Shown one piece after another: positions 11,137 to 25,266 of a DNA stretch of 37,844 nt. The stretch is from a virus. The stretch lies in IMG/VR virus record IMGVR_UViG_3300045988_091806; one strand, written 5' to 3'. The notes beneath the pieces were generated by a model. It saw nothing but the letters and a program-made list of their open reading frames with translations. It was not told the DNA's origin and did no database searches. Position 1 is the first letter of the stretch. Every line of letters begins with the position of its first letter. The position numbers were made by a program, and so were the translations under genes.

Positions 11137-12840
11137 TTAGGCAAATCTTAATTGCCCTGTCTTTTCCTCGTTTATACTGCAGTTAGGCATTCTCTGCGCT
11201 ATACATAATTCTTTAAGGTTAGCCCTTACCAGTGCATTTGGTATCATTGGACTTACAGAGTTCCCGCACCGCTTAACCTGTTCTGTTCTTGGATATGTCT
11301 TACCAGTGTAATCATGGTCTATAATGTAATCGTCCGGGAAACCCTGGCATCCATATAGCTCTCTTGGCTCCAGCATTCGAAGTCCAATATCTACAATTTG
11401 ATAATCCTCACCTTCGATTGTTACTAAGCCGAATCGATCCCGCGATGTTACTGTATCTAACGGCTCTTGAATGTCCTGTCCGGTGCCTTGTCCGTAATAC
11501 TTTATCAGAAATGCCCGAACTTCCCCGAAATGTCCATCTCCGGCCGTAATGGTAGGTAAGGGTTGTCTTATGTCCTTCCCATCGCAGTGATTGTTCATCT
11601 GGATCAAATTTGCCGTAACAACGCTGTTATGATCCCACGCTGTTATTGTCGGCAGTGGATTTTCCATGCTTTCTCCGGCTCCCTTATAGCCACCATCATA
11701 ATATTTATGTAAGAATGATGTAACTAATCCATACCGGTTTGATCCATCCACGGTCATGATCGGATCCTTTATTGTCTGTCCCCGGACTTCTCCCTGTGCT
11801 GTTTCGGAATGGTACTGGATCAGTGTAGGACATATTAAACAATGCTCGTTTTTACTTACTATTGTAGATAACGGCTCCTGAATATTCTTGCTCCGGTCTT
11901 TTGTAAAACCAGTCTGTCCAATCTGAATCATGTAAGGTTCAACAATCCCATATCCATGTTTACCTGTAATTGTTGGCAATGGTTCTTTAGTATCCAGCGG
12001 TCTTCTGTCTCCACCATGATTACACTGAACAATAAAAGGCTCTGGATTATCCAAAACAAATTTCTTTAATCCTCTTGCGATTCTTTCCATTGTCTTAGGT
12101 GCTAATGGTCTTACCGCTTTTATTCCATATTTCTCTTTTATCTGTTCAGATGTATCAAAGATACTGGGGCATGGTCTGCTAAAATCTATCTGCGTATATG
12201 CTCCAACATAAGGCTTTAGCAGTCCCTCTTTCACGGCTTCGCTGTCTGCCGGTGCATGTGTAGGCTCTGGCCATATAATAGGTCTCTTGTCACATCTTGC
12301 AACCATAAAGAATCTCTTTCTCATGGTTGGCGCTCCGTAATCTGCTGCCACAAGCTCCCTGAACTGCACTTCATATCCTAAATCCTGCAGCTGGCTTACA
12401 AACTTATTAAATGTCTTTCCCTGCTTTGCTTTTATCGGATGATGTCCTCTATTCAGCGGTCCCCATGTCTTGAATTCTTCCACATTCTCCAACATGATTA
12501 CTCTAGGTCTTACCAGTCCAGCCCATCGGCATGCTACCCATGCAAGACCTCTTATATTCTTATCCTTTGGCTTGCCGCCTTTTGCCTTGCTGAAATGTTT
12601 ACAGTCTGGAGAGAACCAGGCAAGCCCCACAGGATGCCCATTACATGCCTGCACTGGGTCTACCTGCCATACATCTTCACAATAATGCTTTGTATTCGGA
12701 TGGTTTGCTTTATGCATTGCAATAGCCTTAGGATCATGGTTAATTGCTATATCAACACTAAAGCCGGTAGCTTCTTCTATTCCAGTGGAGGCACCGCCCC
12801 CACCAGCGAAATTATCAACTATTAATTCCCCGTTTATCAT
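11137..12840 (-). CDS. DNA (cytosine-5)-methyltransferase with six tandem TRD-like modules.
   Basis: Motif I NFAGGGGAS, motif IV SPDCKHFS, motif VI MLENV, motif VIII TMRKRFF and motif X GNSVSP are present. SD GGAGG lies 6 nt before ATG 12840. The variable region repeats xPLxT(I/V)T...LV...(L/M)I six times. Confidence 0.85.
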   Translation of the reverse strand: MINGELIVDNFAGGGGASTGIEEATGFSVDIAINHDPKAIAMHKANHPNTKHYCEDVWQVDPVQACNGHPVGLAWFSPDCKHFSKAKGGKPKDKNIRGLAWVACRWAGLVRPRVIMLENVEEFKTWGPLNRGHHPIKAKQGKTFNKFVSQLQDLGYEVQFRELVAADYGAPTMRKRFFMVARCDKRPIIWPEPTHAPADSEAVKEGLLKPYVGAYTQIDFSRPCPSIFDTSEQIKEKYGIKAVRPLAPKTMERIARGLKKFVLDNPEPFIVQCNHGGDRRPLDTKEPLPTITGKHGYGIVEPYMIQIGQTGFTKDRSKNIQEPLSTIVSKNEHCLICPTLIQYHSETAQGEVRGQTIKDPIMTVDGSNRYGLVTSFLHKYYDGGYKGAGESMENPLPTITAWDHNSVVTANLIQMNNHCDGKDIRQPLPTITAGDGHFGEVRAFLIKYYGQGTGQDIQEPLDTVTSRDRFGLVTIEGEDYQIVDIGLRMLEPRELYGCQGFPDDYIIDHDYTGKTYPRTEQVKRCGNSVSPMIPNALVRANLKELCIAQRMPNCSINEEKTGQLRFA

Positions 12841-12841
12841 A

Positions 12842-15370
12842 TTAAGCCTCCATAAAGTCAAACAGCGTAGGTGTTTCTATCTCATTTTCTGCTTCCTGAA
12901 GATATCCAACACCATCTCTGAAATAGTCACAGCTCAGTTCTATTCCATAGCCATATCTTTTCATCTTTACTGCCGTCATTGGAACTGTCATTAAGCCTCC
13001 AAACGGGTCAAGAACCATATCACCTTCATTACTGTATCTGTTAATGATTCTTTCAACAATATCAAGCTGTAGTGGGCATACATGCATCTGCTGCCTGCGT
13101 CTGCTCTGTGTTGTATTAAGTGTTCTCATTCTGTTTATATCATCCCATACGTCAAGGTTATTCCATGAACCGGGAGCGACAACCATAAATGTGGCTGGGA
13201 GCTTATCATTTTTATCTAACTCTTCCGCAAGCTTCACATGTTCTTCATAGCTGTATACATTGGAACGGCTGTATTCCCTATAAACTCTCTGTAAATCATC
13301 AACACTAAATTCCTTAAGCTCATCTTTGCTTATAAGCCTGTCGCCTGAACTTCTCCAGTATCCGTGAGCGTCTATCTGCCATTGTGCCCTTGTATAATCT
13401 TCCTTGGTTTTCTTTACAGGATCATCCGCATATGCATTAGACTTATCCGTTGGAAGCTTTCTAAACAGAAGTATGTATTCAGGACAGCCTACGCCCATCT
13501 TTGAACCGTCTTTACACTGTTCAGACCATCCAAGGCGGTATGTCTGGTTATTCTCCCTGACCACATCTGTAACAACTGTTATCATTCCAAAATACTGAAA
13601 ACCGTGTTTCATGTAGTGTTCTATACACTGTGCATGAAACGGCTCTATTGTAGGCATTCCAGTTCCTGTAGCATTTCCGAATAATACCCTGTCTTTAACA
13701 TGGATGGCTGCTACCCTGCCAGGTTCAAGAATCCTTAAAAGCTCCGGTGTAAGGAAGTCCATCTGCTCAAAGAACTTTTCTGTATTCTCATTGTGTCCGA
13801 AGTCGTTGTAATTGGCGCTATACTCATAATGGTTTCCGAATGGAATGGATGTGTGTATAAGTCCTACAGAATTACTTTCTATTCTTCTGCACTCTTCAAC
13901 ACAATCATCATTTACCGCTGTATAATGCTTTCCCTGTACTTTCACTGTCTCAACTCCCATCTTTCTCTCTAACCGCTTTATTTTAGATGCCGGACTTAAA
14001 CCATATTTCTTTACAATATCCGTCATTTTTTTAACCATGTGATTATGATTCTTCCATTTCTCAAGCAGTGCTTCTTTTATCTGTCTTTCGTTTTCCATGT
14101 ATATAATGTCTATAACAACTGTATCTGTCTGTAAGAACCTGTAACATCTATGTACTGCCTGAATAAAATCGTTAAACTCATAATCAATGCCCAAGAATAT
14201 CTCCCTATGGCAGTAACGCTGAAAATTACAGCCCGAACCTGATATTGATTTCTTTGTTGCAAATAGCTTGATTCTTCCCTGTGCAAAATCAATAACCCGC
14301 TTTTCCCTTAGGTCATAATCCTGCGAGCCGTATATATCTACAACTTCCGGTATTGCCTTAAGAATTGCTTTTCTTTCAGACTCTAAGTCATGCCACAAAA
14401 GGAAATGCTCCTCAGGTAAACTCTCTACAATCTCTTTCATCTTTTCAACACGCTGGTCAATGCTGTTTCTTTTTACTTCTGCAGCTTCCTTCAAGCCTGC
14501 TGCCGCTTCTGTAAATAACTGCATTTGTCCTGTTTTATCAGATGTATCTCCGTAATGTATTGGGATTTCATGCCACTTTACATCAAGGGGCGGTAATACA
14601 TATCCCTCATCGGAATATTCCGGATTTACATCTGAAGGTTTCGTTATGAACAACGCCCATGATGAAACCCACAGCCAGAATTCATCTTCCATATTCGGGT
14701 ACAATGTAAGATTGTTTGCCTTAGTGCTGTCTCTCTGAAAGAATCTTGTAAGTGCCTGCCCTGTATCCATTACCTCAAGATAGCCGGCATAATGTATAAG
14801 CTCTTTGTATTTGTTTGGACTTGGCGTTGCTGTTGCTACCAGCTTGTAAGGAACATTCTTGAACTTATCAAGAAATGTCTGGTATGTCTTGCTTCCAAAA
14901 GACCTTAAAACACTTGCTTCATCCAACGATGTTGCAACAAAATAATCCGGTCTTATATCACCATCCCTTACTCTTTCATAGTTGGTAAGCACAATACTGC
15001 TGTCACAGGATTCTACTTCTTCCATGCTTCTGCAATAAACAGGTGCATCATATCCAAGAACATTCACAGCGTCCTGTGTAAATTCCTGTTTTACTCCAAG
15101 TGGAAGAACAATCAAGGCCCTTCCGCCCTCATGATTTATTACCTGTTTACAGAATTCTATCTCCTGTATGGTTTTACCTAAACCAAAACTTTCAAACAAA
15201 GCTCTTCTTCCACCTTTAAGTGCCCATATTACGGCATCCCTTTGATGTGGCTTTAATGCTTTGTTAATATCTGTCGGATTTACTTCAAATCCGCTATCCT
15301 GTGCAAGTTCTATCTTGCTTTCTAAAAACTCTTTGTATGTCATTTCTGAAAGGAACATCGTACGAATCAC
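12842..15370 (-). CDS. Fusion protein: N-terminal SNF2/DEAD-like helicase plus C-terminal beta-class N4/N6 DNA methyltransferase.
   Basis: The helicase part has motif I FGLGKT, motif II SLDEAS and motif VI QAVHRCYR. The MTase part has motif IV SVGLIHTSIPF before motif I VLDPFGGLMTVPMTAV, which is the beta-class order. The start is uncertain: GTG 15370, or CTG 15379 which lies 9 nt after SD AAAGGAG. Confidence 0.8.
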   Translation of the reverse strand: MIRTMFLSEMTYKEFLESKIELAQDSGFEVNPTDINKALKPHQRDAVIWALKGGRRALFESFGLGKTIQEIEFCKQVINHEGGRALIVLPLGVKQEFTQDAVNVLGYDAPVYCRSMEEVESCDSSIVLTNYERVRDGDIRPDYFVATSLDEASVLRSFGSKTYQTFLDKFKNVPYKLVATATPSPNKYKELIHYAGYLEVMDTGQALTRFFQRDSTKANNLTLYPNMEDEFWLWVSSWALFITKPSDVNPEYSDEGYVLPPLDVKWHEIPIHYGDTSDKTGQMQLFTEAAAGLKEAAEVKRNSIDQRVEKMKEIVESLPEEHFLLWHDLESERKAILKAIPEVVDIYGSQDYDLREKRVIDFAQGRIKLFATKKSISGSGCNFQRYCHREIFLGIDYEFNDFIQAVHRCYRFLQTDTVVIDIIYMENERQIKEALLEKWKNHNHMVKKMTDIVKKYGLSPASKIKRLERKMGVETVKVQGKHYTAVNDDCVEECRRIESNSVGLIHTSIPFGNHYEYSANYNDFGHNENTEKFFEQMDFLTPELLRILEPGRVAAIHVKDRVLFGNATGTGMPTIEPFHAQCIEHYMKHGFQYFGMITVVTDVVRENNQTYRLGWSEQCKDGSKMGVGCPEYILLFRKLPTDKSNAYADDPVKKTKEDYTRAQWQIDAHGYWRSSGDRLISKDELKEFSVDDLQRVYREYSRSNVYSYEEHVKLAEELDKNDKLPATFMVVAPGSWNNLDVWDDINRMRTLNTTQSRRRQQMHVCPLQLDIVERIINRYSNEGDMVLDPFGGLMTVPMTAVKMKRYGYGIELSCDYFRDGVGYLQEAENEIETPTLFDFMEA

Positions 15371-16750: not shown

Positions 16751-16951
16751 TTAATATGTCGATGGATGCTGGCATTCATATAACTCTCTTTTCAGCTTTG
16801 CTATTCTCCCTGCTACTTGTGTAAGATGATTTACACGAATATTGGTATTAACAGCATTTTTGCCCTCATCATATGTAAGAATTGCCTGCCTCGGCCACTC
16901 CTGTTCTTTCAACTCATTCTTGATTCTTTCTTCCTCACTGGCATTTCTCAT
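16751..16951 (-). CDS. Hypothetical protein (66 aa).
   Basis: SD GGAGG lies 6 nt before ATG 16951 (MRNASEEERIKNELKEQEWPRQ...). It overlaps the RNase H 3' end by 17 nt. Confidence 0.5.
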   Translation of the reverse strand: MRNASEEERIKNELKEQEWPRQAILTYDEGKNAVNTNIRVNHLTQVAGRIAKLKRELYECQHPSTY

Positions 16952-17387
16952 ATTCTGCCTCCATCTTCTTAAGCTCATATTCCATCCACTTTGTAAAATC
17001 ATGCGGCTCATCCGACCAGCTTATAATATGTCCGCGGCTTACATTTAGGTACTGCTGCCACAAATCCGCATTCTTTACTGGCTTGCCTGTCTTTTTCTTC
17101 CAACCGTCCTTTTCCCACTGTTGTGGCCAAGCATTTCTACAACTGTTTAATACATGCTCACATTCTGTATTTATGCGGATTTCACAGTTTTCATGGAAAC
17201 GCATAAGTGCATGTATTATTGCCTGCAGTGTTGCCTGGTTCTCTGTTACATTCTCAAGTGTGCCTTTTCCATTACGGACAAATTCTTTGCCATTAATAAC
17301 TATCTTCAAAACATACATGTATGCGACATGCTTGCGGACTGCTGGTCCTCTTGCACTTGTTTTTATATAAACATCTACTTTCTGCAC
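16935..17387 (-). CDS. Ribonuclease H (RNase HI-like).
   Basis: TENQATLQAIIHAL...IRINTECEHVLN...WEKDGWKKKTGKPVKNADLWQQ parallels the RNase HI pattern (TNNRMEL.A...AL ... D S.Y...W..NGWK...G.PVKN.DLW). GTG 17387 lies 8 nt after SD AAGGGAG and overlaps the Rep stop (TAGTG). Confidence 0.75.
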   Translation of the reverse strand: MQKVDVYIKTSARGPAVRKHVAYMYVLKIVINGKEFVRNGKGTLENVTENQATLQAIIHALMRFHENCEIRINTECEHVLNSCRNAWPQQWEKDGWKKKTGKPVKNADLWQQYLNVSRGHIISWSDEPHDFTKWMEYELKKMEAEYEKCQ

Positions 17388-18142
17388 TAACCACACTCCC
17401 TTCCTTTATGTCGTCGAAACTTGGCTTCATAGTATCTAAAGCCCATCTCAGATATTCCGGTTCTCTCAGAATCCTTAACCATGTAATATCCTTGTTTCTC
17501 ATATTTGCGTATTGTGCTTCTCCTTGTTTTATCTGCAAACGTATTTGCATTAACTACCTGTTTTACAATCACTGGCTCTTTTAAATTTCTTGAAGAATTC
17601 CATCGCTTACCTATTCTTCTGCCAAGAGTCTCCTCTGTCTTATTTGCATACTTAACAAAATACTGAGCAATTCTTGTGTAGTCATTGTCACTGTCCAGCG
17701 GCTTTACATGGACAAACCCTTTGTTCCAACATCTCTTTAATACACGCACATCACATACACTCATGATCATGTGAATATGATGCGCTCCCTTACTTCCTAT
17801 CTCTTTAACATAGATGTACTTTAGAGGACCAATGTTCTCAAATTCTCTCCTCAAAGCTTTTAGCAGATTGCGAATATCTACTGTCATATCATCAGGTGTG
17901 GGAGGTCGGCTCTCCCTGGCATAAGTCCATGTAACCAACATTCCTGTCTCATCTGTAAAATTGGTATTCATCTTTGCCGCCAGCTTCCTTTCTGCCAGTC
18001 TCCGGTTTATGGTTTCCTGTTTCGCTGTTGTTACCTTCTCCCGGCTCTCCCTTCTTTCCCCTCGACAGTTATATCTAAGGGTGTGATATCGTCTTATTGT
18101 TATTACGCTACCTGCTATACATATTTCCTTTATGTATGGCAT
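17387..18142 (-). CDS. Rolling-circle replication initiator (HUH endonuclease, two-tyrosine phiX174 A / P2 gpA type).
   Basis: Motif 1-like MLVTWTY, HUH motif GAHHIHMIM and motif 3 AQYFVKYANK (YxxKY). SD AAGGAGA lies 9 nt before ATG 18142. Confidence 0.75.
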   Translation of the reverse strand: MPYIKEICIAGSVITIRRYHTLRYNCRGERRESREKVTTAKQETINRRLAERKLAAKMNTNFTDETGMLVTWTYARESRPPTPDDMTVDIRNLLKALRREFENIGPLKYIYVKEIGSKGAHHIHMIMSVCDVRVLKRCWNKGFVHVKPLDSDNDYTRIAQYFVKYANKTEETLGRRIGKRWNSSRNLKEPVIVKQVVNANTFADKTRRSTIRKYEKQGYYMVKDSERTGISEMGFRYYEAKFRRHKGRECG

Positions 18143-18180
18143 TAAAAATTGTCTCCTTGGTTCTTAACTTAATTAATACA

Positions 18181-18225
18181 ATCAAGTTTTTATGGGGATT
18201 TCCCCCCATTATTTTTCTTGATATT
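18181..18225. promoter_or_regulatory. Candidate double-strand origin / Rep nick region: an imperfect palindrome carrying CTTGAT(A) in both arms.
   Basis: The sequence is ATCAAG-ttttt-ATGGGG-atttcc-CCCCAT-tattttt-CTTGATATT. The plus strand reads CTTGATATT at 18217-18225. The minus strand reads CTTGATTGTATTAAT starting from 18186. Confidence 0.45.
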
Positions 18226-18236
18226 CACATCAAATA

Positions 18237-18265
18237 TTGACTTTATTCTTAAAATGATTTATTAT
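18237..18265 (+). promoter_or_regulatory. Sigma-A-type promoter driving an antisense small RNA.
   Basis: TTGACT (18237-18242), a 17-nt spacer, then TATTAT (18260-18265). Confidence 0.55.
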
Positions 18266-18271
18266 GTATTC

Positions 18272-18329
18272 AAGTTGTTACGCAACTTGTCGATTTGGTT
18301 CGAGCCGCTGGTCCAAGCGGCTCTTTTTT
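18272..18329 (+). ncRNA. Candidate countertranscript (ctRNA-like antisense RNA) against the rep leader, about 58 nt.
   Basis: Downstream of the promoter lie hairpin 1 CAAGTTG-ttacg-CAACTTG (18271-18289) and hairpin 2 GAGCCGCT-ggtcca-AGCGGCTC (18302-18323), followed by TTTTTT (18324-18329). No plus-strand ORF is present. The element lies wholly within the minus-strand intergenic leader. Confidence 0.5.
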
Positions 18330-18486
18330 ATATTGTTGGAAGTCTGTAAGTTCCTTCCGGCACAAAACTGAATATCTCCAACAATCTCAGCCTTGTATAC
18401 CATCTGGCAGCCAGCTCCGTGTTACCATTCCTAAGATTCTCATTAATTCTCTTGTTGTAAGATATTATTAAACCTACACGCCGCAT
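18328..18486 (-). CDS. Small protein (52 aa), unknown.
   Basis: Not in the track. SD AGGAGG precedes ATG 18486. Translation: MRRVGLIISYNKRINENLRNGNTELAARWYTRLRLLEIFSFVPEGTYRLPTI, TAA at 18328-18330. Confidence 0.5.
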   Translation of the reverse strand: MRRVGLIISYNKRINENLRNGNTELAARWYTRLRLLEIFSFVPEGTYRLPTI

Positions 18487-18500
18487 ATTATCCTCCTTTC

Positions 18501-18737
18501 CTAAATTACAATATCCTTTGGTTCATTCGGATTCGTTAAATCCTTTCCCTCGTTATCCCTGAAGAATCTTTCAAGCTCTGACTTTCTTATTCTTGTATGA
18601 GGGATTTTAAGCACCCTTATCTGATTTGCGTTGATAAGTGTATAAACATACTGTTTAGAAGCTCGCATGATTGTTGCCACTTCCTCCACTGTATACACCA
18701 TATCCTCCGGCTCTCTCTTTATTGTTGCTATCTTCAT
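18501..18737 (-). CDS. Excisionase-family helix-turn-helix DNA-binding protein (candidate Xis or early regulator).
   Basis: YTVEEVATIMRASKQYVYTLINANQIRVLKIPHTRIRKSELERF matches the HTH_17/MerR-like excisionase pattern. SD AAGGAGC upstream. Confidence 0.65.
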   Translation of the reverse strand: MKIATIKREPEDMVYTVEEVATIMRASKQYVYTLINANQIRVLKIPHTRIRKSELERFFRDNEGKDLTNPNEPKDIVI

Positions 18738-18758
18738 AAGCTTGCTCCTTTCCTTAAT

Positions 18759-18839
18759 CTATTTCCTCTTAGGTTCATGGCATAACACCAATATTGTTAT
18801 GCAGATAATTGCTGTTATCGCTATTGCTGTATAATTCAT
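18759..18839 (-). CDS. Small hydrophobic peptide (26 aa).
   Basis: The ATG follows the upstream TAA directly. Translation: MNYTAIAITAIICITILVLCHEPKRK. Confidence 0.35.
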   Translation of the reverse strand: MNYTAIAITAIICITILVLCHEPKRK

Positions 18840-19016
18840 TTACTTCTCCTTCATCTTCACCCAGTCTTCTACATCTTTCTGTGTCATCTTCATAGGAGCA
18901 AGCTTAGCTCCCCAGTATTCCGACTCTACTGTTACAACCTCAATATTTTCTTCCTGCATATACCGGAGTAAATCTTCCGGTTTGCCAAAATTGGCATATT
19001 CAGTTCGTATTATCAT
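18840..19016 (-). CDS. Small protein (58 aa), first gene of the leftward early operon.
   Basis: Not in the track. SD AAGGAGG lies 8 nt before ATG 19016. Translation: MIIRTEYANFGKPEDLLRYMQEENIEVVTVESEYWGAKLAPMKMTQKDVEDWVKMKEK. Confidence 0.55.
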   Translation of the reverse strand: MIIRTEYANFGKPEDLLRYMQEENIEVVTVESEYWGAKLAPMKMTQKDVEDWVKMKEK

Positions 19017-19071
19017 AAATTTTGCCTCCTTGCATTATCTGTACAATTCAGTAGTATTTTCTTGTTATAAG

Positions 19072-19080
19072 TGCTATACT
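19072..19080 (+). promoter_or_regulatory. Extended -10 promoter candidate for the 19110-19863 cassette.
   Basis: TGcTATACT at 19072-19080, about 30 nt upstream of ATG 19110. No good -35 element. Confidence 0.35.
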
Positions 19081-19109
19081 AATTTAATAAAATATAAAGG
19101 AGTAAATAT

Positions 19110-19523
19110 ATGCCACTATGGTTAGACTATTTATGTGCTGCTACCGGCTTAATAAGTTTTGCCTTATCCTTATTAACTTATTGGAACACTCGTAAATTAA
19201 AGCTGGTTGTTCTTTATACAAAAGAACGCGCTGATTATAAAAATGAATATCAGTCATTAGAAGCTCAGATTGACGGCTTCATTCTTTCTTTATCCCATGA
19301 TTTGCAAGCTTCTGACTTAAGCGACTCAATTGATATTTTTGTAAACAACTTAACTGAAAGATATTCTTTCTTGAAAAAATCACGAGTGCAAAATCATGTT
19401 CTTTATTTAAAAATGCTGCATAAATTCAATAAAAATAATAATCACTTATACATAACCAGATTAAATTCATTAAAAATTCAACTTAACAAGGAGGCACATT
19501 ATGACTCAACCCAACATTATTAA
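19110..19523 (+). CDS. Membrane-anchored protein (N-terminal TM helix plus helical domain), unknown family.
   Basis: SD AAGGAG lies before ATG 19110. The N-terminus is PLWLDYLCAATGLISFALSLLTYW. The gene is very AT-rich and lies on the strand opposite to the flanking early genes. Confidence 0.65.
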   Translation: MPLWLDYLCAATGLISFALSLLTYWNTRKLKLVVLYTKERADYKNEYQSLEAQIDGFILSLSHDLQASDLSDSIDIFVNNLTERYSFLKKSRVQNHVLYLKMLHKFNKNNNHLYITRLNSLKIQLNKEAHYDSTQHY

Positions 19524-19863
19524 TTTTGTTATGAATCTCTCTAATAAAACTGCTAATAATCAGTTAAATTGGCAGCAAGTTCTCTTTTTAGAACCATCCT
19601 TAAATAAATTATTTGATACATTTGATACTCTTCAATCTTTTGTCTGCCATCTTGACGCTGGTGACATATACCTTATTAATGGGAAATTAAAAAGTTCTTC
19701 GACTGCATTTAAAAATTACTTATTCCTTGATGACAAAAATGTTGTTCAACAGATATTTATTGATGATTGCTACATATATCAACTCTTAAATGCAATACAG
19801 GCATCTTCTAATACCACAAATGAACTCATTAATAAATTTAACAATGCAATAAATAATCAATAA
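19501..19863 (+). CDS. Asn/Gln-rich protein, unknown family, translationally coupled to 19110..19523.
   Basis: SD AAGGAGG lies before ATG 19501. It overlaps the upstream gene by 23 nt. Confidence 0.6.
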   Translation: MTQPNIINFVMNLSNKTANNQLNWQQVLFLEPSLNKLFDTFDTLQSFVCHLDAGDIYLINGKLKSSSTAFKNYLFLDDKNVVQQIFIDDCYIYQLLNAIQASSNTTNELINKFNNAINNQ

Positions 19864-20194: not shown

Positions 20195-20213
20195 TTTTGT
20201 TTCCTCCTTTCAT

Positions 20214-20230
20214 GTTTGCATAACGCAAAC
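20214..20230. promoter_or_regulatory. Operator: perfect 17-bp palindrome GTTTGCATAACGCAAAC.
   Basis: Read directly. Related sites are CTTTGCATTTTGTAAAC (20276-20292), a GCAAAC at 20256-20261 and a GTTTGC at 20306-20311 inside the rightward promoter spacer. Confidence 0.6.
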
Positions 20231-20239
20231 TTTGATTAT

Positions 20240-20268
20240 AATATAATTACTATCTGCAAACTTGTCAA
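20240..20268 (-). promoter_or_regulatory. Leftward (cro-side) promoter.
   Basis: On the minus strand: TTGACA (20268-20263), a 17-nt spacer, then TATATT (20245-20240). Confidence 0.55.
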
Positions 20269-20298
20269 TAGTTTCCTTTGCATTTTGTAAACTTTTTA

Positions 20299-20327
20299 TT
20301 GACATGTTTGCATTTCATTCATATAAT
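20299..20327 (+). promoter_or_regulatory. Rightward (repressor-side) promoter with consensus hexamers.
   Basis: TTGACA (20299-20304), a 17-nt spacer, then TATAAT (20322-20327). Confidence 0.65.
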
Positions 20328-20366
20328 CAAATCATACAAATGTTATTCAAGGCGGTGATTAATAAT

Positions 20367-20675
20367 ATGGGAGATATTTTTAACGAAAATTTAAAGTCAG
20401 CAAGAGAAAAGAAAGGTTTATCTCAAAAAGAAGTTGCTGAAGCTATTGGGGTCGCCAAATCTACATATTCTTTATATGAGAGTGGGAATAGAGAACCTAA
20501 TGTTCAAACTATAAAGCGAATTGCTGATGTATTAAATGTTTCTGCCGATGTGCTTTTAGGATTAGAAGAACCTCATACTATAGCTGCTCATTTTGATGGA
20601 GATGGATTTACGCCAGAGGAATTAAATAAGATAGAAGAATTCGCTAATTTTGTTAAGTCAAAAAGAAAAAACTAA
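20367..20675 (+). CDS. cI-like XRE-family repressor.
   Basis: GLSQKEVAEAIGVAKSTYSLYESGNREPNVQTIKRIADVLNVSADVLLG is a classic XRE HTH. ATG 20367 lies after AAGGCGGTGA. The track start at 20262 is a TTG inside the operator region. Confidence 0.8.
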   Translation: MGDIFNENLKSAREKKGLSQKEVAEAIGVAKSTYSLYESGNREPNVQTIKRIADVLNVSADVLLGLEEPHTIAAHFDGDGFTPEELNKIEEFANFVKSKRKN

Positions 20676-20687
20676 GGGGATGATTTA

Positions 20688-21161
20688 TTGACTGATTATG
20701 AGAAATTATTATCCAATGCAAACGATAATAATGTTACAGTTTATGATGACTACAATTTGAAGGGAACTAGAATAAAAGGATTATATTGTGATGGCTCTGT
20801 TGCTATAAGTAATAGCTTAAGAACACAAAAAGAAAAAACCTGTGTACTTGCAGAGGAATTAGGACATTTCTACACCTCAACCGGAAATATCTTAGATATG
20901 TCTGACACTGGTAACAGAAAGCAAGAAGCTAGAGCCCGTCTGTGGGCATATAACAGACAAGTTGGTTTGCAAGGTATTATTAATTGTTATAAGGCCAATT
21001 GCAGAACTTTACATGATATGGCAGATTACTTAAATGTAACAGAAGAATTTCTAAGTGACGCTATTGAATGTTACCGTTCTAAATATGGCATATCCGTGCA
21101 AGTAGACAATTATGTTGTTGGGTTTCAACCATCATTATATATTATGGAATTATTTGAATAG
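20688..21161 (+). CDS. ImmA/IrrE-like metallopeptidase domain protein (DUF955-like) with a variant motif.
   Basis: CVLAEELGHFYTS occupies the place of the HExxH motif (A-E-E-L-G-H). The TTG start lies 7 nt after AAGGGGA. It sits directly downstream of the repressor, as in ImmR/ImmA pairs. Confidence 0.65.
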   Translation: MTDYEKLLSNANDNNVTVYDDYNLKGTRIKGLYCDGSVAISNSLRTQKEKTCVLAEELGHFYTSTGNILDMSDTGNRKQEARARLWAYNRQVGLQGIINCYKANCRTLHDMADYLNVTEEFLSDAIECYRSKYGISVQVDNYVVGFQPSLYIMELFE

Positions 21162-23893: not shown

Positions 23894-24054
23894 GCCACGA
23901 TACTTACATAAGCAGTGCCTATGATATAATACCGCCCTGAACAAGCCATATTATATCATTCTGAACACCGCTTTTGCAAGTAGGTGTATTTTTTATACCC
24001 ATTTTTACTGTTGCACCAGTGCAACTTCCCAAAAAACAGAAAGGAATGATTAAT

Positions 24055-25266
24055 ATGAAAAAGAAAATATCTAAGGTCCTTACATATAAGCGTGGCAATC
24101 TATGGGCCTATCGTTTTGAATCTGCCCCTGTAGATAGCAAAAGGAAGTGGATTACCAAGAGCGGATTTAAGAACCAATCTGAGGCATATGAAGCCGGTAT
24201 GGTCGCATACACACAATATAAACAGACTGGCAAGAGCTTCACTCCATCTAATATCTCTGTATCTGATTACATGGATTACTGGATTGATAATTATTGCAAG
24301 GTCAATCTTAAAGCTAATACGGCATCAACTTACAAAAAGAAAATTGATTTATATATAAAGCCGGCTATTGGTTCATATTATCTTAAAGACATAGAGCCAA
24401 GTCTTCTCCAAGAGCTTATAAATAATCTTTTTAATACCGGAATGTCGCGAAACTCTCTCGGCAATGTTAAGGGCATTCTTACCAAGTCATTTGCCTACGC
24501 AAAGACTACTGCAAGATTTATTAATGATGACCCTTCTGCAACTATTTCTCTTCCGCTTCCAAGAGCAAAGGCAGAGGTTAAAACAAAAAAGAAAGTAAGA
24601 GTCGTATGGACTAATGAGCAGCTTGATACTGTCTTTAAAACATTTGCACAAGGACATATATATCATATGCCACTTCTTCTCGCTTATAGGTGCGGCATGC
24701 GTCTGGGTGAGATATTTGGTCTTATGTGGGATGATATAGACTTTGATAATGGATTATTAAGCATTAATAGACAGGTACAGAATCATGATGATAAATGGTA
24801 TCTGGAAAACCCTAAATATGATTCATATCGTACCATAGAACTTGATGATACAACGCTTTCAGAACTTAAAAGACTGTACGAACATGAAAAGGAATGTGAA
24901 CAGTACTATAATGAATATTACAATTATATCTACTGTGAGACACTTGAAGATGACTCTAAGAGACTTACTTATGAACCGGCTGGCAAATCAATACATATGG
25001 TGCTTGTAAGAGATGATGGCTCATGGATCCAACCAAGAACCATGATGCACTGTTTTAATGTTATTCATCACAAGCTTGGCTTCACTGAGCTTGATTTCCA
25101 TTCTCTCAGGCATACACACGCTTCTAATTTACTCGCCAAAGGAGCTGATGTTAAATATGTACAAGAGCGTCTGGGACATAAAAATGTAGCAACCACTCTT
25201 GATATATACGCCCATGTCACAGAAACCATGCGTGAGCGCAACAAGGACATATTAAATACACTATAA
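24055..25266 (+). CDS. int: Tyrosine integrase with an N-terminal arm-type (AP2-like) DNA-binding domain.
   Basis: The N-terminus is KRGNLWAYRFESAPVDSKRKWITKSGFKNQSEAYEAGMVAY. The catalytic region has RCGMRLGEIFGL, HSLRHTHASNLL and GHKNVATTLDIYAH (R...HxxR...Y). SD AAAGGA lies 9 nt before ATG 24055. Confidence 0.9.
   Translation: MKKKISKVLTYKRGNLWAYRFESAPVDSKRKWITKSGFKNQSEAYEAGMVAYTQYKQTGKSFTPSNISVSDYMDYWIDNYCKVNLKANTASTYKKKIDLYIKPAIGSYYLKDIEPSLLQELINNLFNTGMSRNSLGNVKGILTKSFAYAKTTARFINDDPSATISLPLPRAKAEVKTKKKVRVVWTNEQLDTVFKTFAQGHIYHMPLLLAYRCGMRLGEIFGLMWDDIDFDNGLLSINRQVQNHDDKWYLENPKYDSYRTIELDDTTLSELKRLYEHEKECEQYYNEYYNYIYCETLEDDSKRLTYEPAGKSIHMVLVRDDGSWIQPRTMMHCFNVIHHKLGFTELDFHSLRHTHASNLLAKGADVKYVQERLGHKNVATTLDIYAHVTETMRERNKDILNTL

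Follow-up and report, generated by a model that had tools for sequence, protein, structure and literature searches.

Small rolling-circle plasmids control synthesis of their Rep proteins with antisense RNAs as a matter of textbook knowledge. Does a tailed temperate phage that carries a rolling-circle initiator gene limit its initiator in a comparable way? The question is raised by the 37,844-nt stretch of DNA analyzed here as a whole (hereafter the window; IMG/VR record IMGVR_UViG_3300045988_091806), from a tailed temperate gut phage of ~38 kb with an initiator gene, rep. A promoter-like site, two hairpins and a run of Ts lie just upstream of rep on the opposite strand, and the first-pass annotation had read them as a plasmid-style countertranscript RNA.

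The initiator gene and its neighbors

The rep gene (17387-18142, minus strand) encodes an HUH rolling-circle replication initiator of 251 aa. The protein matches Pfam PF23343 (REP_ORF2-G2P) with 56.9 bits against a cut-off of 27.8 and is assigned to PHROG 3584/3419, and its residues H122-x-H124 (the HIH motif) and Y161/Y165 (YxxKY) are invariant in 11 relatives. Judged by the family HMM match above cut-off and by both motifs, rep is a genuine HUH rolling-circle initiator gene. Homologs of Rep are also present in small rolling-circle plasmids. Directly downstream lies an RNase H gene (16935-17396, minus strand; Pfam PF00075), a conserved member of the module that adjoins rep in 27 of 31 lineages and also in phage phiCs5676-1.

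The genes upstream of rep are not conserved between lineages. In the window this place is taken by a 52-aa ORF of the early operon (18328-18486, minus strand, from the ORF list; stop codon 18330-18328). Neither this ORF nor the upstream ORFs of 58 aa and 48 aa had any Pfam or PHROG match, even at E = 5, and a role of these ORFs as CopG-like partners was rejected on that ground and because the genes differ between lineages. The 52-aa ORF is separated from the start codon of rep by 185 nt (18143-18327), the length given by the first-pass annotation; its description as a simple leader did not hold, since most of the interval is occupied by an origin-like module (~18159-18225).

A short predicted transcription unit opposite rep

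On the plus strand, a sigma-70-type promoter is located at 18237-18265, with the -35 element TTGACT (18237-18242), a 17-bp spacer and the -10 element TATTAT (18260-18265), a 10/12 match. It is followed by hairpin 1, CAAGTTG ttacg CAACTTG (18271-18289; arms 18271-18277 and 18283-18289), and by a predicted intrinsic terminator at 18302-18329, identified by stem search and from relatives. The terminator consists of hairpin 2, with an 8-bp GC-rich stem (GAGCCGCT, 18302-18309; AGCGGCTC, 18316-18323) and the 6-nt loop ggtcca, and of six Ts (18324-18329). Promoter, hairpins and T-run are thus present as the first-pass annotation had listed them, and its statements that no meaningful plus-strand ORF occupies the interval (by the ORF list) and that hairpin 2 on the minus strand lacks a U-tract (it is followed by GAACCAAATCG) were confirmed; the stretch separating the hairpins, given as 11 nt, is in fact 12 nt long (tcgatttggttc, 18290-18301). 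The linker considered below as the single-stranded, seed-bearing segment spans 18289-18301 on the plus strand (GUCGAUUUGGUUC), and the core of its seed is UUUGGUUC (18294-18301).

The 5' end of the RNA was assumed to lie 6-7 nt past the -10 element and the 3' end was placed in the T-run, which gives a putative small RNA of ~58 nt (18272-18329, plus strand) on the evidence of the fold, of a covariance model (R1) and of the relatives. The 58-nt sequence has a minimum free energy of -21.6 kcal/mol (z = -3.69). The stop codon of the 52-aa ORF overlaps the end of the T-run, so that the ORF and the small RNA gene are convergent. The hairpin 1 arm CAACTTG resembles CAACTTG of phiX174, and hairpin 1 was therefore considered as a second nick site; this was rejected because the likeness is confined to the window lineage.

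In the single sequence alone, the features of the unit are weakly above chance and one such site would not stand out. Between 14 and 23 kb of the window, promoter-like sites are as common as in shuffled sequence (38 vs. 36.8), and there are 7 terminator-like sites vs. 4.5 in shuffles. No Rfam family matched anywhere in the window at gathering thresholds. A permissive scan returned only sub-threshold matches (BjrC1505, 24 bits; ctRNA_pT181, 24 bits; RcsR1, 22 bits), which are dominated by the terminator and do not amount to family membership, and the families of pGA1 (RF00236), pND324 (RF00238) and p42d (RF00489) gave no match in 17900-18800 at E values up to 10.

Conservation of the unit in relatives

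What lifts the small RNA unit above chance is its conservation in the sequences compared. A blastn search with 17300-19100 against phage and plasmid collections gave no match, and relatives were found via the Rep protein. The same order of promoter, hairpins and terminator opposite rep occurs in 97 distinct relatives whose Rep proteins are 34-100% identical, among them human-gut Lachnospiraceae and Eubacterium prophages and the cultured phages phiCs5676-1, PhiS63 and phiSM101. At least one cultured phage, phiCs5676-1, has the unit over-annotated as a 36-aa “hypothetical protein” (CS5676_0051).

Across the 97 rep-upstream regions, the best promoter directed away from rep scores on average 10.3/12, compared with 8.0/12 for the best promoter directed toward rep. 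The promoter spacing is 17 bp in nearly all relatives while the spacer sequence varies. On the RNA strand, a hairpin with a T-tail follows 51-73 nt downstream of the promoter in 85 of the 97 regions, which puts the predicted RNA length in relatives at 51-73 nt; a terminator-like site on the rep strand was found in a single region (1/97). The T-tail of the RNA lies, in most lineages, no more than ~20 nt from the stop of a rep-strand ORF upstream of rep, whose family varies. A search for a promoter that would serve rep itself, located between rep and the RNA gene, gave nothing clear: within 360 nt upstream of rep no rep-directed promoter rises above background (best 8/12 in the window, mean best 8.0/12 in relatives). 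Given the lack of a rep-proximal promoter and of a rep-strand terminator, and an upstream ORF stop that abuts the T-tail, read-through would be the simplest route to rep transcription.

The predicted RNA structure is also conserved. The covariance model R1, which was built from close lineages, matches the window exactly once (18272-18328, 79.9 bits) and likewise has a single match at each related locus. Among the close lineages, pairing is kept in 98.8% of cells, and two pairs show the compensatory change from C:G to U:A. The alignment based on the model has 92% of cells paired and six pairs that have changed on both sides, as much as is reached by 2 of 500 shuffles. Lineages with Rep at least 54% identical keep the 5' hairpin with different sequences (AAGTCG/CGGCTT, AAAGTCAT/ATGACTTT, GAGTT/AACTC), and in more distant lineages the stems are entirely different in sequence. 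Judged from these comparisons, a short transcription unit opposite rep is very likely to be real.

An origin-like module between the RNA gene and rep

The module at ~18159-18225 is conserved across the Rep family and comprises a CTTGAT..TATTAA motif, a GC hairpin (18192-18209) and a second CTTGATA; it marks the probable replication origin of this phage family. The motif occupies 18159-18186 (rep-strand sequence CTTGATTGTATTAATTAAGTTAAGAACC), between the rep ribosome-binding site and the hairpin, and the form CTTG[AC]T..TATTA[TA]C..GACC is kept in all lineages down to 34% Rep identity, and also in phages Arawn, phiCs5676-1, PhiS63 and phiSM101. The motif resembles the phiX174 origin. It is a candidate for the region that Rep nicks or binds in a double-strand origin, and a similar ...CTTGATA occurs in the origin of pC194/pUB110 (PMC5031790).

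The center of the module is the GC-rich hairpin A (ATGGGG atttcc CCCCAT, 18192-18209), whose place is kept in most of the 97 relatives while the sequence of its stem changes. Together with a T-run, hairpin A was considered as a plus-strand terminator. This was rejected: in the L026/L155 lineage the T-run stays with the -35 element, 75 nt away from the hairpin, and thus the T-run is better read as an UP-like element of the promoter. The second CTTGATA (18217-18223, plus strand) is inverted relative to the copy at 18186-18181, and in most relatives its position is that of the -35 element itself (CTTGACT). Hairpin A is flanked by two inverted CTTGA copies, so that either strand could be the one nicked. 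Read on the rep strand, the sequence after hairpin A is AAAAACTTG and that after hairpin 2 is GAACCAAA.

The RNA gene sits on the far side of this module from rep; as a consequence, the RNA does not overlap the rep ribosome-binding site, and any pairing there would use a short separate seed. Phage Arawn keeps the origin-like motif and hairpin A and lacks the RNA unit, which argues that the unit is accessory to Rep and origin function, as expected of a regulator.

Predicted pairing of the RNA linker with the rep translation-initiation region

The proposed target is the rep mRNA segment GAACCAAGGAGAC (18151-18163, minus strand; -21 to -9 from the AUG), which contains the Shine-Dalgarno sequence GGAG (18156-18153). 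In the window, the linker at 18289-18301 is predicted to pair with 18163-18151 through 8 bp, a 2x2 internal loop and 3 bp (-14.3 kcal/mol; seed parts 18294-18301 and 18289-18291), with a net cofold gain of -14.8 kcal/mol and both hairpins retained. The contiguous seed is only 8 bp here, and its score of 18 is close to the average of non-cognate pairs (16.2 +/- 2.7); what speaks for pairing in the window is the interrupted 8+3 duplex and the sister lineages, whose homologous linkers pair over 13 bp (L155) or 9+4 bp (L115). Contiguous helices reach 13 bp in L155, L162 and L089, 11 bp in L044, 10 bp in L074 and L131, and 9 bp in L043, compared with 8 bp in the window lineage, and nearly all lie within -28 to -1 of the rep ATG. 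With the whole region from the -35 element to the ATG taken as target, every helix with a score of at least 25 in the relatives falls at -28 to -1.

If the complementarity were incidental, cognate pairs should do no better than permuted ones. Among 31 lineages, the helix-score sum is 550 for cognate pairs vs. 502 +/- 14 for permuted pairs (p = 0.001), and the structure-aware cofold gain averages -7.97 vs. -5.9 kcal/mol, with none of 20000 permutations as good. The cognate target is the best of 31 for seven of the small RNAs, including that of the window lineage (-12.8 kcal/mol). Among individual changes, a C/T polymorphism at 18301 among close relatives is wobble-compatible, one target position goes from A:U to G.U to G:C in the three closest lineages, and an AC insertion in the target of L131 is matched by a GU insertion in its RNA. 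On these comparisons, the predicted pairing of RNA and rep is lineage-specific, through an accessible single-stranded segment complementary to the initiation region. The first-pass proposal that an RNA of ~58 nt limits Rep is partly supported and gains from this lineage-specific pairing.

Pairing to the rep initiation region is weak (weaker than -6 kcal/mol) for about half of the 31 lineages. Many of these lineages carry instead an inverted repeat that spans the promoter -10 element and the early transcript; the repeat is significant in 12 of 31 lineages, L086, L074 and L088 being examples of lineages that have it, and covers the spacer and -10, never the -35. This repeat is left unexplained by the Rep-limiting model set out below. 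In L162, phiSM101 and phiCs5676-1, the repeated segment coincides with the origin motif and not with the Shine-Dalgarno sequence, which could mean a DNA-level repeat. A reading of the repeated seed as a DNA-level Rep-binding iteron was mostly rejected, since in L043, L089, L074, L044 and L131 the match follows the Shine-Dalgarno sequence and AUG, does not follow the origin motif, and has wobble-compatible mismatches; for L162, phiSM101 and phiCs5676-1 the iteron reading is possible.

A proposed Rep-limiting RNA and the alternatives

The best reading of the unit, and one that we consider reasonably probable, is an antisense-type small RNA that limits Rep. We infer the production of the RNA, its ends, a start of rep mRNA upstream of it and the direction of regulation. 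Under this model, a constitutive sigma-70-type promoter (18237-18265, plus strand) would make an RNA of ~58 nt (~18272-18329) composed of a 5' hairpin, a single-stranded linker of 12-13 nt and an intrinsic terminator, from a gene that has on one side the final upstream gene of the leftward early operon, on the other the origin-like module, and that is convergent with the operon. The linker would pair with the rep Shine-Dalgarno region (18151-18163, minus strand) and block ribosome loading. In addition, the RNA would be fully complementary to any early transcript reading through into rep, and convergent transcription with duplex formation should further cut read-through rep mRNA. Such an RNA would probably serve to silence the initiator in lysogens and, once the phage is induced, to hold Rep down; for relatives that live as episomes, phiSM101 for example, it could set copy number.

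The main rival, to which we give a small but appreciable chance, is that the unit belongs to the replication origin and is not a regulator. In one version, transcription beside the nick-region hairpin would open or negatively supercoil the origin and let Rep nick. In another, the short RNA, or RNA made from the promoter on displaced single-stranded DNA, would prime the complementary strand and the phage RNase H would remove the primer, an arrangement akin to that of an sso, of the f1 minus-strand origin or of ColE1. The promoter abutting the origin hairpin and the RNase H gene linked to rep (27/31 lineages) are equally compatible with such a replication role. The -35 element begins 5-10 nt past hairpin A in most lineages, but this gap is 28 nt in the window lineage and 75 nt in L026/L155. 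In most lineages the -35 (CTTGACT) repeats, in inverted orientation, the CTTG[AC]T motif conserved on the rep strand, and the polarity of the RNA would fit annealing to the rep-sense strand, displaced if Rep nicks rep-strand CTTGAT. The inverted repeat of 10-13 bp, which joins the promoter spacer and -10 to transcript positions +10..+30 in 12 of 31 lineages, can form only in DNA or in rep-sense RNA, not in the small RNA; it is absent from the window lineage. Arawn, as noted, lacks the unit although it has motif, hairpin and rep. The strength of the intrinsic terminator and the conserved length of ~57 nt suggest a released RNA, and covarying complementarity to the rep ribosome-binding site has no role in this origin model.

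It is unlikely, in our estimate, that promoter and RNA are built into the origin such that origin firing is coupled with Rep supply (an RNA-gated origin). Rep and RNA polymerase would then compete for one DNA site in most lineages, where the -35 CTTGACT is one of the two inverted CTTGA motifs, and the RNA would feed back on Rep translation. In some lineages, it would also act on DNA or as a primer handled by the linked RNase H, by way of the promoter-spanning inverted repeat or of an origin-motif copy inside the RNA. If true, this would be a class of origin control not described for tailed dsDNA phages.

A rather improbable alternative holds that transcription itself matters, the convergent promoter and terminator acting as a transcriptional-interference insulator that limits read-through into the origin and rep. 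Such an insulator would fit the convergent layout, in which most lineages have the upstream ORF ending no more than ~20 nt from the T-tail, and a rep strand that has neither a terminator (1/97) nor a rep-proximal promoter, but it needs neither the conserved order of hairpin, linker and terminator nor the lineage-specific match to the rep initiation region. Interference is compatible with a Rep-limiting small RNA, to which it probably adds rather than substitutes for it.

We regard as very improbable a trans-acting phage small RNA whose main targets are host or other phage mRNAs and whose place beside rep is incidental. The free-standing unit from promoter to terminator, its accessible linker and fast sequence change between lineages would be expected of such an RNA; its place beside rep nevertheless stays the same across Rep identities of 34-100%, although the genes upstream vary, and in seven lineages the cognate rep initiation region is the best of 31 targets, rep regions alone having been compared. 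That hairpins and a promoter-like site fell together by chance in AT-rich intergenic DNA, for which it could be said that promoter-like sites are no commoner here than in shuffled sequence of the region, is already effectively refuted by the relatives, with 97 distinct loci, a strand asymmetry of 85/97 vs. 1/97, constant 17-bp spacing, stem covariation and covariance-model matches.

For the preferred reading, a small RNA that limits Rep, no description of the RNA or of antisense control in these phages was found in the full-text literature. Antisense control of Rep is not described for tailed temperate phages with an HUH initiator, and the unit is not in Rfam. The unit is widespread: prophages of human-gut Lachnospiraceae and Eubacterium have it, as do phages of Clostridium perfringens, the episomal phiSM101 among them. 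If true, the model gives a handle on how abundant gut prophages silence their initiator and set copy number after induction. It would also describe a natural antisense-type RNA that reaches the ribosome-binding site of its target across the origin via a short co-evolving seed and not by overlap, and would offer genetic tools for Clostridia in the form of a compact set of orthogonal pairs of small RNA and target, the seeds differing among 31 lineages.

Comparison with known systems

The origin-like module has counterparts in plasmids and phages. The origins of pC194/pUB110 have the consensus CTT(G)TTCTTTCTTATCTTGATA (PMC5031790). As in these plasmids, a CTTGATA-type motif lies beside a hairpin directly upstream of an HUH rep gene, and the phage Rep shares the HUH and Y-x-x-x-Y motifs with phiX174 protein A. 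Unlike in either system, two inverted CTTGA copies flank the hairpin, and the Rep family is PF23343, not Rep_1 or Phage_GPA. The unit would also be like the single-strand origins ssoA/ssoU, the f1/M13 minus-strand origin and Frpo of the F plasmid in having RNA polymerase make a short RNA beside a rolling-circle origin, and in 12 of 31 related lineages inverted repeats involve promoter elements. Those promoters exist only in folded single-stranded DNA and yield primers of ~20 nt without a canonical terminator, whereas the phage unit has a canonical double-stranded promoter, a predicted 58-nt RNA and a strong terminator, and the window lineage has no promoter-spanning repeat.

Among temperate phages, lambda oop is a terminated antisense RNA of ~77 nt, directed against the early operon at a place immediately before the replication genes. 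Its target is the mRNA of cII, whose 3' end it overlaps, and not that of the initiator, and lambda O is not a rolling-circle nickase. The window unit likewise predicts a short terminated RNA against an early operon, upstream of a replication gene in a temperate phage. Unlike oop, it overlaps the upstream 52-aa ORF by the stop codon only (18328-18330), so that an oop-type overlap is lacking, and its seed matches the rep ribosome-binding site.

The first-pass annotation had compared the unit to countertranscript RNAs of rolling-circle plasmids (pT181, pMV158 and pC194 relatives), stated to be of exactly this design. For pT181 the match is not exact; the resemblance to pT181 RNAI/RNAII (RF00242) extends to a short, two-hairpin, terminated RNA against the rep leader of a rolling-circle replicon. 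In pT181, control is by attenuation, ctRNA binding letting a leader terminator form, and an attenuator of this style was rejected here since the rep strand has no U-tract after either hairpin and a terminator-like hairpin is found in 1 of 97 relatives. The RF00242 match reaches 24.2 bits (E = 1.2), where the gathering score is 56, and comes mostly from the terminator. In pT181 the origin is located within repC, and the initiator RepC belongs to Rep_trans and not to HUH.

The part of the plasmid analogy that survives is a layout like that of pMV158 RNAII, which appears to be the closest design. In the copG-repB control of pMV158/pLS1, binding of RNAII needs a single-stranded stretch 5' of the terminator hairpin, and RNAII inhibits rep translation (PMC4485353, PMC5717011). 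There are differences. RNAII is fully complementary to the mRNA region that it acts on; in the window an origin-like module intervenes, and a separate seed of 8-13 nt would pair at the ribosome-binding site. The window RNA has an extra 5' hairpin, the Rep families differ (Rep_2 in pMV158, PF23343 here), the carrier is a 38-kb tailed temperate phage, and the two RNAs have no sequence or Rfam relationship. Like RNAII, the predicted RNA is very small, has its own promoter and an intrinsic terminator, and lies on the strand opposite to the rep operon, upstream of rep (start 18142) and between it and an upstream co-transcribed gene; promoter, length (58 nt in the window) and terminator recur in 85-97 of the 97 relatives. 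The seed proposed to act against the rep ribosome-binding site occupies the same position as in RNAII, beside the terminator hairpin.

Genome context and rep

The window spans the complete genome of a temperate phage of siphovirus type. Its lysogeny genes comprise an integrase gene (23974-25266), an Abi-like gene, and a plus-strand repressor gene paired with one for an ImmA-type protease (20262-21161); on the minus strand, a Cro-like gene of 64 aa (20194-20000) is preceded by a near-consensus promoter at 20268. In the leftward early region lie an HTH_17/Xis-like gene, a 52-aa ORF, rep, the RNase H gene, a gene fusing helicase to methyltransferase, and another methyltransferase gene; the terminase, portal and tail genes come after it. 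The rep product is an HUH rolling-circle initiator (Pfam PF23343, 56.9 bits with a cut-off of 27.8), in which H-I-H and Y161-x-x-K-Y165 are invariant among 11 relatives; homologs are also encoded by small rolling-circle plasmids from Brevibacillus and Geobacillus, as well as by C. perfringens phage-plasmids of 38 kb.

Several other features of the genome were observed. The interval 20210-20330 looks like a genetic switch, with back-to-back near-consensus promoters (plus strand, 20299, TTGACA-17-TATAAT, 12 of 12 hexamer matches; minus strand, 20268, TTGACA-17-TATATT, 11 of 12), the repressor/ImmA pair on one side and the Cro-like gene on the other; a possible operator is the palindrome GTTTGCATAACGCAAAC (20214-20230). 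Two moron-like ORFs of 137 and 120 aa (19110-19863, plus strand), for which no family match was found, lie between the Cro-like and Xis-like genes and oppose the leftward early direction, and early transcripts must either run through them in antisense or be started anew within the 93-bp gap (19017-19109). The early/middle region (11137-15370, minus strand) encodes an 842-aa protein that joins an SNF2-type helicase to a DNA methyltransferase domain and, after it, the second DNA methyltransferase, of 574 aa.

A probable small-RNA unit opposite rep

Every element described by the first-pass annotation was found on the plus strand. The promoter (-35 TTGACT at 18237-18242, 17-bp spacer, -10 TATTAT at 18260-18265) is followed by hairpin 1 with a 7-bp stem, CAAGTTG/CAACTTG (18271-18289), a linker of 12 nt rather than the 11 first counted (18290-18301), hairpin 2 with an 8-bp GC-rich stem, GAGCCGCT/AGCGGCTC (18302-18323), and six Ts (18324-18329). 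With its ends placed from the promoter and terminator positions, the 58-nt RNA (18272-18329) has a predicted fold of exactly hairpins 1 and 2 (z = -3.69 vs. shuffles). On the minus strand there is no U-tract after either hairpin. As had been claimed, the gap between the 52-aa ORF (18486-18328, minus strand) and rep (18142-17387, minus strand) is 185 nt; the stop codon of this ORF overlaps the final bases of the T-run. Consensus promoter-like sites in the AT-rich region around the unit are as frequent as in shuffled sequence, thus a single such site is by itself unremarkable.

Nucleotide searches of phage and plasmid collections gave no match. Rep-based searches of IMG/VR, GTDB genomes and metagenomes yielded 176 loci (loci are numbered with the prefix L), reduced to 97 distinct rep-upstream regions with Rep 34-100% identical, mostly from human gut samples and with Lachnospiraceae, Eubacterium, Acetatifactor and Pseudobutyrivibrio as recorded hosts. 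Across these regions, the best promoter facing away from rep matches the two hexamers at 10.3/12 on average, vs. 8.0/12 for the best promoter facing toward rep, and the away-facing promoters have 17-bp spacing in nearly all regions with variable spacer sequence. A GC hairpin with a T-tail lies downstream in 85 of the 97, giving inferred RNAs of 51-73 nt, and just one region has anything resembling a terminator on the rep strand. In most lineages, the T-tail lies no more than about 20 nt from the stop of a rep-strand ORF, and the ORF families differ between lineages; the unit therefore always occupies the gap between whichever gene precedes it and rep. The RNase H gene (window 16935-17396, minus strand) directly follows rep in phiCs5676-1 and in 27 of the 31 lineages used for the pairing analysis. 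Since the genes upstream vary and RNase H stays beside rep, the conserved module comprises the small RNA, the origin, rep and RNase H.

Stem pairing persists as the sequences diverge. Among close lineages, 98.8% of the stem cells in the alignment are paired, with C:G replaced by U:A at two positions. A model-fitted alignment, which is biased toward the structure used to build it, has 92% of cells paired and six pairs changed on both sides; in distant lineages the stem sequences are unrelated. The close-lineage covariance model, a home-made one with rough E-values, has one match in the window (18272-18328, 79.9 bits) and one in each related locus. Three cultured phages also carry the promoter-to-terminator unit opposite rep: phiCs5676-1 from C. 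scindens, and PhiS63 and phiSM101 from C. perfringens. The unit is a widespread and previously undescribed candidate RNA element of gut Clostridia phages.

Two annotation matters were noted in these loci. In phiCs5676-1, promoter and predicted transcript lie under the 36-aa hypothetical CDS CS5676_0051 (L178 1347-1457) on the opposite strand, which is probably a spurious gene call. In L001-L016 and L021-L025, otherwise near-identical contigs differ in the length (6 to 9 bases) of a homopolymer, C on the small-RNA strand, that lies within a 131-133-codon ORF some 270 nt upstream of rep; the difference is either noise from assembly or sequencing, or the mark of a phase-variable frameshift site.

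An origin-like module

The 185-nt interval had been described as a leader; its length stands, and most of it is an origin-like module rather than plain leader. This module (18159-18225) separates the rep ribosome-binding site from the RNA promoter, and every relative has a motif and a GC hairpin at this place. The family-wide motif, CTTG[AC]T..TATTA[TA]C..GACC on the rep strand, is CTTGATTGTATTAATTAAGTTAAGAACC in the window (18186-18159); the GC-rich hairpin A (18192-18209) varies in sequence between relatives, and across it lies a second, inverted CTTGATA (18217-18223), 14 nt before the -35. In most lineages the inverted CTTGA doubles as the -35 hexamer (tttttCTTGACTttt), whereas in the window the two are separate. 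CTTGATA resembles the phiX174 origin, CAACTTG/ATATTAATAAC. The pC194/pUB110 origin consensus ends in this sequence, CTTGATA (PMC5031790). The module is probably the rolling-circle double-strand origin of the phage. Butyrivibrio phage Arawn (L177 1410-1500) keeps the motif, hairpin A and rep, with 91 nt from the upstream gene to rep and no small-RNA unit, indicating that the unit is separable from the Rep/origin core. The Arawn record has no annotated integrase.

Predicted pairing with the rep ribosome-binding site

Because the RNA gene and the rep ribosome-binding site do not overlap, pairing there was checked separately, each RNA against its own rep (-40 to +15) in 31 lineages with RNAs under 80% alike. 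Uninterrupted cognate helices reach 13 bp in L155 (UUCUCUCUGGUUU with GAACCAGGGAGAA), L162 and L089, 11 bp in L044, 10 bp in L074 and L131, 9 bp in L043 and 8 bp in the window lineage, mostly involving a loop or the single-stranded linker immediately 5' of the terminator hairpin. When the target was widened to everything between the -35 and the ATG, all helices scoring at least 25 lay in the interval -28 to -1 relative to the ATG. The helix scores sum to 550 for cognate pairs vs. 502 ± 14 for permuted pairs (P = 0.001, among lineages that are not fully independent), and the reverse-complement control averages 13.4 vs. 17.7. In structure-aware cofolding, the mean gain is -7.97 vs. -5.9 kcal/mol (0 of 20000 permutations as good), and for seven RNAs, including that of the window, their own target is the best of the 31.

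In the window, GUCGAUUUGGUUC (18289-18301) is predicted to pair with GAACCAAGGAGAC (18163-18151) through 8 bp, a 2×2 internal loop and 3 bp (-14.3 kcal/mol), covering the GGAG and leaving both RNA hairpins intact. One target position runs A:U, G.U and G:C among the three closest lineages. The L131 target has an inserted AC for which its RNA has a corresponding GU, and wobble pairing could accommodate the C/T polymorphism that near-identical contigs show at 18301.

Pairing with the rep translation-initiation region is weak in about half of the 31 lineages. A 10-13-bp inverted repeat spanning the promoter occurs in 12 of the 31, all distant from the window and mostly with such weak pairing (L083, L086, L040, L074, L077, L159, L094, L087, L090, L174, L081 and L044; in L086, TATGCCCTTATACT..AGTATAAGGGCTTA), and also in PhiS63 (L181) and phiCs5676-1. 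The promoter spacer/-10 forms its left arm and +10 to +30 of the transcript its right arm; it can form in DNA or rep-sense RNA only, not within the small RNA. In L162, phiSM101 and phiCs5676-1, the RNA has a 13-14-nt copy of the origin motif in place of the anti-Shine-Dalgarno segment; in phiSM101 (L180, about 700-830), GTTAATATCTAGTA is found both beside rep and inside the terminator hairpin. Together with the linkage of RNase H to rep in 27 of the 31 lineages, these observations keep alive the unlikely alternative that the promoter or the RNA acts in origin function, by activation or priming. Pure transcriptional interference is less probable still, and such interference would add to a Rep-limiting RNA.

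Proposed mechanism and comparison with known systems

The best reading of the sequences is that the RNA is a countertranscript controlling Rep, which would act as a Rep-limiting antisense-type sRNA whose linker blocks the rep ribosome-binding site. Lineage-specific pairing favors this part of the first-pass proposal; the RNA lies beyond the origin module and would reach the rep ribosome-binding site through a short seed. Neither a rep-directed promoter above background nor a rep-strand terminator was found upstream of rep, thus read-through from the early operon is the simplest route to rep transcription. With read-through, the RNA would also be perfectly complementary to, and convergent with, the early transcript.

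The window RNA falls in no Rfam family. Of the plasmids to whose countertranscripts it had been likened (pT181, pMV158 and pC194 relatives), pT181 has an attenuation design, which is not the one seen here; the closest known design is pMV158 RNAII, in which 8 nt of single strand beside the terminator hairpin drive binding and repB translation is inhibited (PMC4485353; PMC5717011). The unit would be a new variation on an already known sort of Rep control.
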